DNA of 64,000 nt, from the NCBI RefSeq assembly GCF_058153355.1, contig NZ_CM177019.1; one strand, given 5' to 3'. Each line of letters starts with the position of its first letter. Positions within the stretch are counted from its first letter, which is position 1. Below the pieces are notes generated by a model. That model made no database searches. It was given only the letters and a program-made list of their open reading frames with translations, and was not told the origin of the DNA. Both the position numbers and the translations under genes were made by a program. Positions 734 to 1,731 of the stretch are shown in pieces.

Positions 734-1267
734 ATGAGCGCAAAAATCAAATACGGCCTGTCGGCTGCTGTTCTGGCGCTGATTGCCGCAGGCGCGTCTG
801 CTCCCCAGATACTTGACCAGTTTCTGAACGAAAAAGAGGGTAATCACACAACGGCATACCGTGATGGTTCTGGCATATGGACCATCTGTCGTGGTGCCAC
901 AATGGTGGATGGTAAGCCTGTCATACCGGGAATGAAGCTGTCGAAGGAAAAATGTGACCAGGTTAACGCTATTGAACGTGATAAGGCGCTGGCATGGGTG
1001 GAGCGCAATATTAAAGTACCTTTGACCGAACCACAGAAAGCGGGTATAGCGTCATTTTGTCCCTATAACATTGGCCCCGGTAAGTGTTTTCCGTCGACGT
1101 TTTATAAGCGGCTGAATGCTGGTGATCGTAAAGGTGCATGCGAGGCGATTCGCTGGTGGATAAAAGATGGTGGGCGCGATTGCCGCATACGTTCAAATAA
1201 CTGCTATGGACAGGTTATTCGTCGTGACCAGGAAAGCGCATTAGCCTGTTGGGGGATAGATCAGTGA
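734..1267 (+). CDS. phage endolysin (lysozyme family), probably SAR-type
   Basis: 177-aa product resembles lambdoid/P21-type lysozymes; N-terminal weakly hydrophobic Ala/Gly-rich segment ([15 protein letters not shown]) consistent with a signal-anchor-release domain. Confidence 0.75.
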
Positions 1268-1731
1268 GCAGAGTCGCCGCGATTATTTATGCTCTGGTTA
1301 TCTGCATCATCGTCTGCCTGTCATTGGCTGTTAATCATTACCGTGATAACGCAATCGCCTACAAAGAGCAGCGCGATAACAAGGCCAGTGAACTGGAGAA
1401 GGCGAACGCCACCATTACTGACATGCAGCAGCGCCAGCGTGATGCTGATGCACTCGATGCTAAATACACGAAGGAGTTAGCTGATGCGAAAGCTGAAAAT
1501 GATGCTCTTCGGCGCAAGCTTGATAATGGTGGCAGGGTGCTCGTCAAAGGAAAATGTCCTGTGCCATCCTCAGCCGAAACCTCCAGCGCCTCCGGCATGG
1601 GCAATGATGCCACCGTCGAACTCTCTCCAGTTGCTGGACGAAACGTTCTCGGTATCCGGGACGGAATCATCAGAGACCAGACAGCACTGAGAACGCTTCA
1701 GGAATACATCAAGACGCAATGCCTGAATTAA
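1264..1731 (+). CDS. Rz-like inner-membrane spanin (i-spanin)
   Basis: GTG at 1264 overlaps the endolysin stop; N-terminal TM segment then charged coiled-coil region; typical position after endolysin. Confidence 0.65.
1484..1690 (+). CDS. Rz1-like outer-membrane lipoprotein spanin (o-spanin), nested in Rz in another frame
   Basis: 68-aa ORF wholly inside Rz; signal peptide with lipobox-like MVAGC followed by proline-rich sequence. Confidence 0.65.

Follow-up and report, generated by a model that had tools for sequence, protein, structure and literature searches.

Intact reading frames of a nested Rz/Rz1 spanin pair in a defective lambdoid prophage

Nucleotides 1264-1731 of the window, by which we mean the whole 64,000-nucleotide stretch of DNA that was analysed, very probably encode an embedded two-component spanin of the lambda type. 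On this reading the spanin closes a lysis cassette of lambdoid type, and the pair was recently stranded with intact reading frames in a defective prophage. A preliminary description of the same DNA had placed nested Rz and Rz1 genes at this position and had given the inner product a length of 68 aa; both the coordinates and the length proved exact when the open reading frames (ORFs) were checked. The pair itself is ordinary and already known, being near-identical to alleles of isolated phages, and embedded Rz/Rz1 spanins are textbook phage biology, so that its identification carries little scientific weight. The intact lysis reading frames, lying beside deleted head genes and damaged tail genes, describe the state of the prophage and fix the boundary of the deletion precisely.

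Results

The inner-membrane subunit Rz

The gene for Rz, the inner-membrane spanin subunit (i-spanin), occupies 1264..1731 on the plus strand and encodes 155 aa. It starts with a GTG codon at 1264, which lies in a GTGA overlap with the stop codon of the endolysin gene (1265-1267). Among 80 related loci the homologous codon is ATG in 68 and GTG in 12, and because one of these two start codons stands at this position in all of the relatives, 1264 was taken as the true start. A TTG at 1249, given as the start by a mechanical ORF list, was rejected since the relatives begin with ATG or GTG at the equivalent of 1264.

The Rz protein matched the Pfam family PF03245 ('Bacteriophage Rz lysis protein') with an E-value of 2.9e-29 and a score of 102.3 bits, against a gathering cut-off of 25.4. 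It also matched phrog_13 ('Rz-like spanin') over about its full length (1-154 of 154; E 1.1e-72). A search of NCBIfam with Rz and Rz1 gave no informative match, and a sequence search of the PDB with Rz returned no solved relative. The preliminary description had named transmembrane and coiled-coil prediction as the checks to be made on Rz, and both came out in its favour. Residues 4-22 form one strongly hydrophobic N-terminal segment, with a mean Kyte-Doolittle value of 2.98 over 19 residues, and this segment is also helical in an AlphaFold2 model based on 13 homologues, as expected for the single N-terminal transmembrane helix of an i-spanin. The model predicts a helix at residues 2-87 (pLDDT ~85), a disordered stretch at 88-126 (pLDDT <50) and a further helix at 127-153. 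In a crude, home-made heptad test, 72% and 75% of the a and d positions in the two helices were hydrophobic, compared with a background of 37%. Together, the model and this rough test suggest that Rz has the two helical periplasmic segments and the flexible linker of an i-spanin, and the predicted layout matches the TMD/CC1/L2/CC2 plan of lambda Rz, in which L2 is the linker (PMC5295617). Rz contains two cysteines, Cys98 and Cys153.

The nested lipoprotein Rz1

The gene for Rz1, the outer-membrane lipoprotein subunit (o-spanin), lies at 1484..1690 on the plus strand and encodes 68 aa. Its ATG start is offset by 220 nt from that of Rz, which puts it in the +1 frame, and the ORF lies wholly within Rz, so that the o-spanin gene is contained entirely inside the i-spanin gene. 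The motif AAGGAG stands 7 nt 5' of the ATG. The translated protein matched PF06085 ('Lipoprotein Rz1 precursor') with an E-value of 1.9e-21 and 76.0 bits (gathering cut-off 27.9), and matched the 68-position profile phrog_3198 ('Rz-like spanin') over its full length with an E-value of 8.2e-27.

The signal peptidase II signal of Rz1 was judged by pattern rules. Residues M15-V16-A17-G18-C19 hold a lipobox with predicted cleavage in front of Cys19, and the VAGC tetrapeptide fits the consensus [LVI][ASTVI][GAS]C (PMC6139136). The protein also fits the PROSITE pattern PS51257 with its side rules, namely a cysteine between positions 15 and 35 and a Lys or Arg among the first 7 residues. Three positive charges (R2, K3 and K5) fall within residues 1-5 and are followed by an 11-residue hydrophobic core. 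The preliminary description had staked its reading on the lipobox and on a signal peptidase II site; by these rules both are present, at Cys19. Mature Rz1 would begin with C-S-S-K and have Ser20 at position +2. Under the Lol +2 rule of E. coli, Asp at this position decides against sorting to the outer membrane. Since the residue is Ser and not Asp, the outer membrane is the destination that would be expected for Rz1.

Prolines make up 8 of the 50 mature residues, all of them within residues 28-45 (8 of 18), in agreement with the earlier characterisation of a proline-rich, lipobox-bearing ORF inside Rz in another frame. A further cysteine, Cys27, is present besides Cys19. The coding sequence for mature Rz1 overlaps that of the Rz linker and of the beginning of the second Rz helix, with the proline-rich region mapping to linker residues 101-119, as described for lambda. 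In lambda, the critical part of each spanin overlaps a tolerant part of the other (PMC5295617), a rule that the layout of the present pair matches. Nine relatives carry 77-aa variants of Rz1 that begin at an upstream ATG. A longer start of this kind was rejected for the window copy, in which the +1 frame has a stop codon at 1478-1480; 68 aa is the usual length for this Rz1 allele, with no extension.

Constraint on the two reading frames

We assessed how readily a nested ORF of this kind could arise by chance by holding the Rz protein fixed and generating 20,000 synonymous recodings of it. In 25% of the recodings the +1 frame still held an ORF of 68 aa or more, and in 2.8% it held one with a lipobox. 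The length of the Rz1 ORF is by itself not significant and is uninformative as evidence.

Relatives for comparison were drawn from an IMG/VR scan with the Rz protein and were hence unbiased toward Rz1. The scan gave 80 loci, among which Rz occurred in 50 different versions and Rz1 in 28, and the nested ORF (68-aa core), its lipobox and its stop position were kept in every one. We counted codon-position variability over 60 distinct nucleotide sequences. Before the overlap, 44 of 72 third-codon positions of Rz were variable (61%); within it the count was 15 of 69 (22%), and after it 10 of 13 (77%). Before and within the overlap, these proportions differed highly significantly (Fisher p = 3e-6). 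Mosaicism of alleles in the N-terminal half may inflate the value before the overlap, but the segment after it gives the same contrast. Within the overlap the most variable position was Rz codon position 1, which is position 3 of Rz1. The drop in Rz third-position variability from 61% to 22% in the overlap indicates that both frames are constrained. Judged from these patterns of variation, purifying selection acts on both frames across the family. Homology to PF06085 and PHROG 3198, taken together with this dual-frame constraint, is the decisive evidence for Rz1.

The lysis cassette around the pair

The Rz start overlaps the stop codon of an endolysin gene of the phage lysozyme family at 734..1267 on the plus strand (PF00959, E 1.1e-24; phrog_7, E 7e-64), with a holin 0.7 kb upstream in the related contig L005, so that the pair sits beside an endolysin at a lysis-cassette site. 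The endolysin contains the motif E35-8aa-D44-5aa-T50, and its residues 7-24 are weakly hydrophobic with Gly, Ala or Ser at 11 of 18 positions. Because of this Gly/Ala/Ser-rich N-terminal segment and the E-8-D-5-T motif, the enzyme is probably of the signal-anchor-release (SAR) type.

The holin was mapped by means of L005, which is 99.97% identical to window positions 1-7731, the deletion junction described below included. In this contig a 71-aa holin (PF04971) is encoded at 4557..4772, which maps to -180..35 of the window. Positions 1..35 on the plus strand of the window are the 3' end, stop codon included, of a class II (phage 21 S-type) pinholin whose remainder lies upstream of the window. 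The L005 protein starts with MKSMDK, a dual-start motif. L005 carries replication genes, NinH, the Q antiterminator, four tRNA genes and the holin upstream of the window, and the part from Q through the tRNA genes to the holin is contiguous, with no insertion sequence (IS).

Between holin and endolysin lies a 209-aa ORF of unknown function (39..668, plus strand). It matched phrog_1085, itself a family of unknown function, with an E-value of 3.9e-74, and gave no match in Pfam, NCBIfam or PADLOC. The same ORF occupies this position in E. coli FDAARGOS_944 and in Shigella-type contigs, whereas mEp460 and Qin have YdfR at the site. It is an uncharacterised passenger of the lysis cassette.

The cassette order is pinholin, 209-aa ORF, endolysin, and Rz with nested Rz1, and the gene order in the window agrees with that of lambda, DLP12 and mEp460. 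The reading frames of the holin (in L005), the endolysin, Rz and Rz1 are all open, with no frameshift or stop. The preliminary description had called this end of the lysis cassette intact. This holds for the reading frames; the window contains just the last 35 nt of the holin gene, so it displays the cassette in part.

Comparison with known spanins

As in the window, lambda Rz1 lies wholly inside Rz in the +1 frame, the lambda Rz start overlaps the endolysin stop, and the Rz1 start has the context AAGGAG-N7-ATG. The Rz proteins of lambda and the window are 60% identical over 154 aa, with 83% identity over residues 1-83 and 33% over the remainder. Both Rz1 proteins (68 aa in the window, 60 aa in lambda) have a lipobox and a PPAW-containing proline-rich region, and their mature parts are 33% identical (32.7%) in a global alignment. 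Since the C-terminal half of Rz and mature Rz1 are each only 33% identical to their lambda counterparts, the interacting C-terminal module is a different allele. The window pair further differs from lambda in having PKPPAPP in place of the pentaproline, in starting Rz with GTG instead of ATG, and in its upstream partners, which are a pinholin and a probable SAR-type endolysin instead of S and R. In the alignment, Rz Cys98 and Cys153 and Rz1 Cys27 fall at lambda C99, C152 and C29, the positions of homotypic intermolecular disulfides in lambda (PMC5295617). By this alignment, the window proteins would likewise have periplasmic cysteines for homotypic disulfides.

Rz of the isolated phage mEp460 is 93% identical to that of the window and its Rz1 is identical at 66 of 68 residues (97.1%), while Rz1 of HK620 is 92.6% identical over 68 aa (tblastn). 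Length (68 aa), frame and stop position of Rz1 are the same in mEp460, HK620 and the window, and few substitutions separate the window copy from these phages (W21L, K150 and N155 in Rz; V16A and A25V in Rz1). mEp460 and HK620 are viable phages, whereas the window copy sits in a head-less, defective prophage.

Kongari et al. (2018) assigned both of these phages to the lambda i-spanin family and to the HK620 o-spanin family (PMC6139136). Their i-spanin threshold is an identity of 40% or more across no less than 40% of the length (PMC6139136), which Rz exceeds with its identity to lambda, and mEp460, to which it is closer still, is listed in that family. Rz1 likewise exceeds the at least 40% identity of the HK620 o-spanin family with its values to HK620 and mEp460. 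It falls outside the lambda o-spanin family (at least 40% identity in the periplasmic domain) at the 32.7% found for its mature part, which fits the placement of mEp460 outside that family in the same study (PMC6139136). A local BLASTP alignment with lambda Rz1 gave 47%, a figure that includes the signal peptide. On these sequence identities, the pair is classed as a lambda-family i-spanin combined with an HK620-family o-spanin.

Two defective prophages of E. coli K-12, DLP12 and Qin, have likewise kept nested spanin genes 3' of an endolysin gene. The DLP12 pair rzpD/rzoD belongs to the lambda family, with 58% and 41% identity to the window proteins. The Qin proteins RzpQ and RzoQ show no sequence relationship to the window pair, with global alignments giving 17% and 20% identity; RzpQ belongs to DUF2514, whereas the window Rz had no DUF2514 match in Pfam. 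The window endolysin is named rrrQ in some of the matching genome records, and the combination of a Qin-like endolysin with a lambda/HK620-type spanin amounts to ordinary lambdoid mosaicism. The embedded spanin architecture proposed in the preliminary description is thus borne out by the family models, lipobox, transmembrane helix, predicted helix-linker-helix layout, cysteines, site after the endolysin and conserved nested frame.

Decay of the prophage

Downstream of Rz, 1773..1966 on the plus strand holds the 5' remnant of a DUF4406 gene, about 65 of its 103 codons, and PF14359 matches residues 1-65 only. The truncated ORF continues through unrelated sequence to 2099, giving a 108-aa fusion ORF (1773..2099). 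A PADLOC scan of this ORF and of the 209-aa ORF found no match to a defence system. Homology to an intact E. coli relative, like the alignment with the full-length DUF4406 gene in contig L001, ends at 1966. Homology on the right-hand side resumes at 1967, which is 6 nt 5' of the ATG of a Gifsy-2-family head-tail gene. The boundary at 1966..1967 is therefore the junction of a deletion in which the head and packaging genes were lost; no IS element is present at the junction, and microhomology there is at most 1 nt. A scan of a genome contig collection for exact matches to 46 nt spanning the junction gave no hit. The first gene retained after it encodes the 91-aa head-tail protein (1973..2248, plus strand; PF13856, E 3.5e-16) and corresponds to 3007..3282 in contig L004 and 6710..6985 in L005. 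In relatives, the interval deleted here holds the DUF1441, large terminase, portal, protease/capsid and DUF2190 genes, and the earlier statement that the head genes are gone was correct.

The tail genes are also damaged. A CAG to TAG change at 6842 cuts the tail tape measure gene (4748-7789) at codon 699, where L005 has 1013 codons; over 7.7 kb the window and L005 differ at just one other place. With its head genes lost and a nonsense codon in the tape measure gene, the prophage is defective and unable to make virions, and in a prophage without heads the canonical purpose of a spanin is moot. The gpJ-like tail tip gene is apparently interrupted as well, with one ORF at 10165..13011 followed by another in a different frame at 13059..13562; for the homologous gene of E. 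coli VL7S7, too, the annotation is that of a pseudogene containing an internal stop.

Two sister genomes, L006 and L007 (NCBI GCA_031665835.1 and GCA_002950055.1), were compared with window positions 1-1966 and 17639-20468. Both contain the same cassette with a single SNP in 1966 nt and a full-length DUF4406 gene. An IS66 element lies between the Q antiterminator and the holin in both, and IS elements stand in place of the whole stretch that begins beyond DUF4406 and reaches halfway into the tail fibre gene. As judged from these alignments, the two genomes represent an independent decay route of the same prophage. A difference of 1 nt in 1966 from the sister copies suggests that the decay is recent, and the divergence is too small for relaxed selection to be detected.

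The distal end of the prophage, adjoining yecD/aspS, carries a 583-aa gene for an ipaH-type type III secretion effector E3 ligase (19472-21223, minus strand). Matching genomes of EIEC-like E. coli name it ipaHd, and LRR_TTSS and NEL domains are present in its L006 homologue. The window thus comes from a chromosome of the Shigella/EIEC type, and the prophage is an ipaH carrier.

Substitutions in the window copy

The window copy of the pair has several unusual residues. Trp21 of Rz (in CLSWAVNHY) is present in all 79 IMG/VR relatives, in lambda, in mEp460 and in DLP12 RzpD; the W21L substitution of the window (codon 21, 1324-1326) occurs in 0 of the 79. K150 of Rz occurs in 0 of 79 relatives and N155 in 1 of 79, and A25V of Rz1 in 1 of 80. 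These four changes could reflect relaxed selection. Residue 21 falls within the transmembrane segment, and in lambda Rz this segment can be replaced artificially without loss of function (PMC5295617). The change V61A makes lambda Rz lysis-defective (PMC5295617); the window Rz has Ala at position 61, as does mEp460 Rz. The exact Rz protein was found on five NCBI contigs under the record name 'lysis protein [Shigella dysenteriae]', and this form with Leu21 was found only on contigs labelled Shigella dysenteriae.

Discussion

The mechanism that we propose for the pair is that established for lambda (PMC5295617, PMC6139136), and its topology, complex formation and fusion step are inferred by analogy. 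Rz would insert in the inner membrane by its N-terminal helix, with two flexibly linked helical segments reaching into the periplasm. After export, Rz1 would receive its lipid at Cys19 from the lipoprotein pathway and be processed by signal peptidase II; Ser, and not Asp, at +2 would direct it to the outer membrane. As in lambda, Rz and Rz1 would then bind each other across the periplasm through their C-terminal parts, as disulfide-linked dimers. Once the endolysin has removed the peptidoglycan, the complex would collapse or change conformation and the inner and outer membranes would fuse, completing lysis.

It is possible, though we consider it the less likely case, that the genes, for all their intact frames, are functionally dead or unexpressed, as the decaying remnant of a defective prophage under relaxed selection; such a reading bears on present-day function and not on identity. 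It would agree with the loss of the head and packaging genes and the interruption of the tape measure and J-like genes, with the window-specific substitutions in Rz and Rz1, and with the IS66 element that separates Q from the holin in L006 and L007. If the cassette were dead, however, several observations would have to be accommodated. The holin (in L005), endolysin, Rz and Rz1 are free of frameshifts and stops, and in L005, which is collinear with the window, Q, the four tRNA genes and the holin follow one another without an IS. The unusual substitutions sit at positions where lambda is tolerant (PMC5295617), and the cassette differs from the sister copies by a single nucleotide in 1966.

A more improbable reading is that the host has domesticated the lysis module together with its spanins, for example to modulate the cell wall or outer-membrane vesicles, and that selection maintains it although the virion genes are lost. 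Deletion of the DLP12 lysis module is reported to alter vesicle production (PMC7918800), and two deletion patterns of the same prophage, that of the window and L005 and the IS-mediated one of L006 and L007, both spare the cassette. Two cases could nevertheless be coincidence, the IS66 element uncouples the cassette from Q in L006 and L007, and the single SNP in 1966 nt shows recency and not selection, with no power to separate the two. The sparing of the cassette on two independent decay routes of one ipaH-carrying prophage is a weak hint in this direction. The specific form of the idea, that the module was kept by selection in a Shigella-type lineage after virion-gene loss for envelope or vesicle functions of the kind proposed for DLP12, seems to us slightly more doubtful still. 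We retain the description of a recently stranded spanin pair with intact frames.

The idea that the 68 codons of Rz1 are open merely by accident, and form no gene, is excluded by the codon-position analysis and the homology. In its favour, a frame of this length survives readily in synonymous recodings, annotation pipelines leave the nested Rz1 uncalled, a collection of about 15 billion predicted proteins lacks the exact sequence, and nearly all listed phage records are without the feature. Against it stand the matches to PF06085 (E 1.9e-21) and PHROG 3198 (E 8e-27), the lipobox, the strong Shine-Dalgarno sequence and the conserved Cys, the retention of the frame by all 80 relatives, in which variability has moved to the codon position that suits the +1 frame (p = 3e-6), and the experimental finding that the homologous lambda Rz1 is essential for lysis (PMC5295617). 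The nested o-spanin gene is in fact systematically missed by annotation pipelines. The exact Rz protein is present among the same 15 billion, and of the 84 phage records that contain this Rz1 allele, 40 matches were listed and one, SPN3UB, had an Rz1 feature under the match. Since pipelines miss the nested gene, a scan that recognises Rz1 provides useful annotation.

The region also contains an antisense ORF of 103 aa within Rz, at 1359..1670 on the minus strand, which matched phrog_35444 (unknown function) with an E-value of 6e-19. This most likely represents a family of mis-called antisense ORFs in phage annotations.
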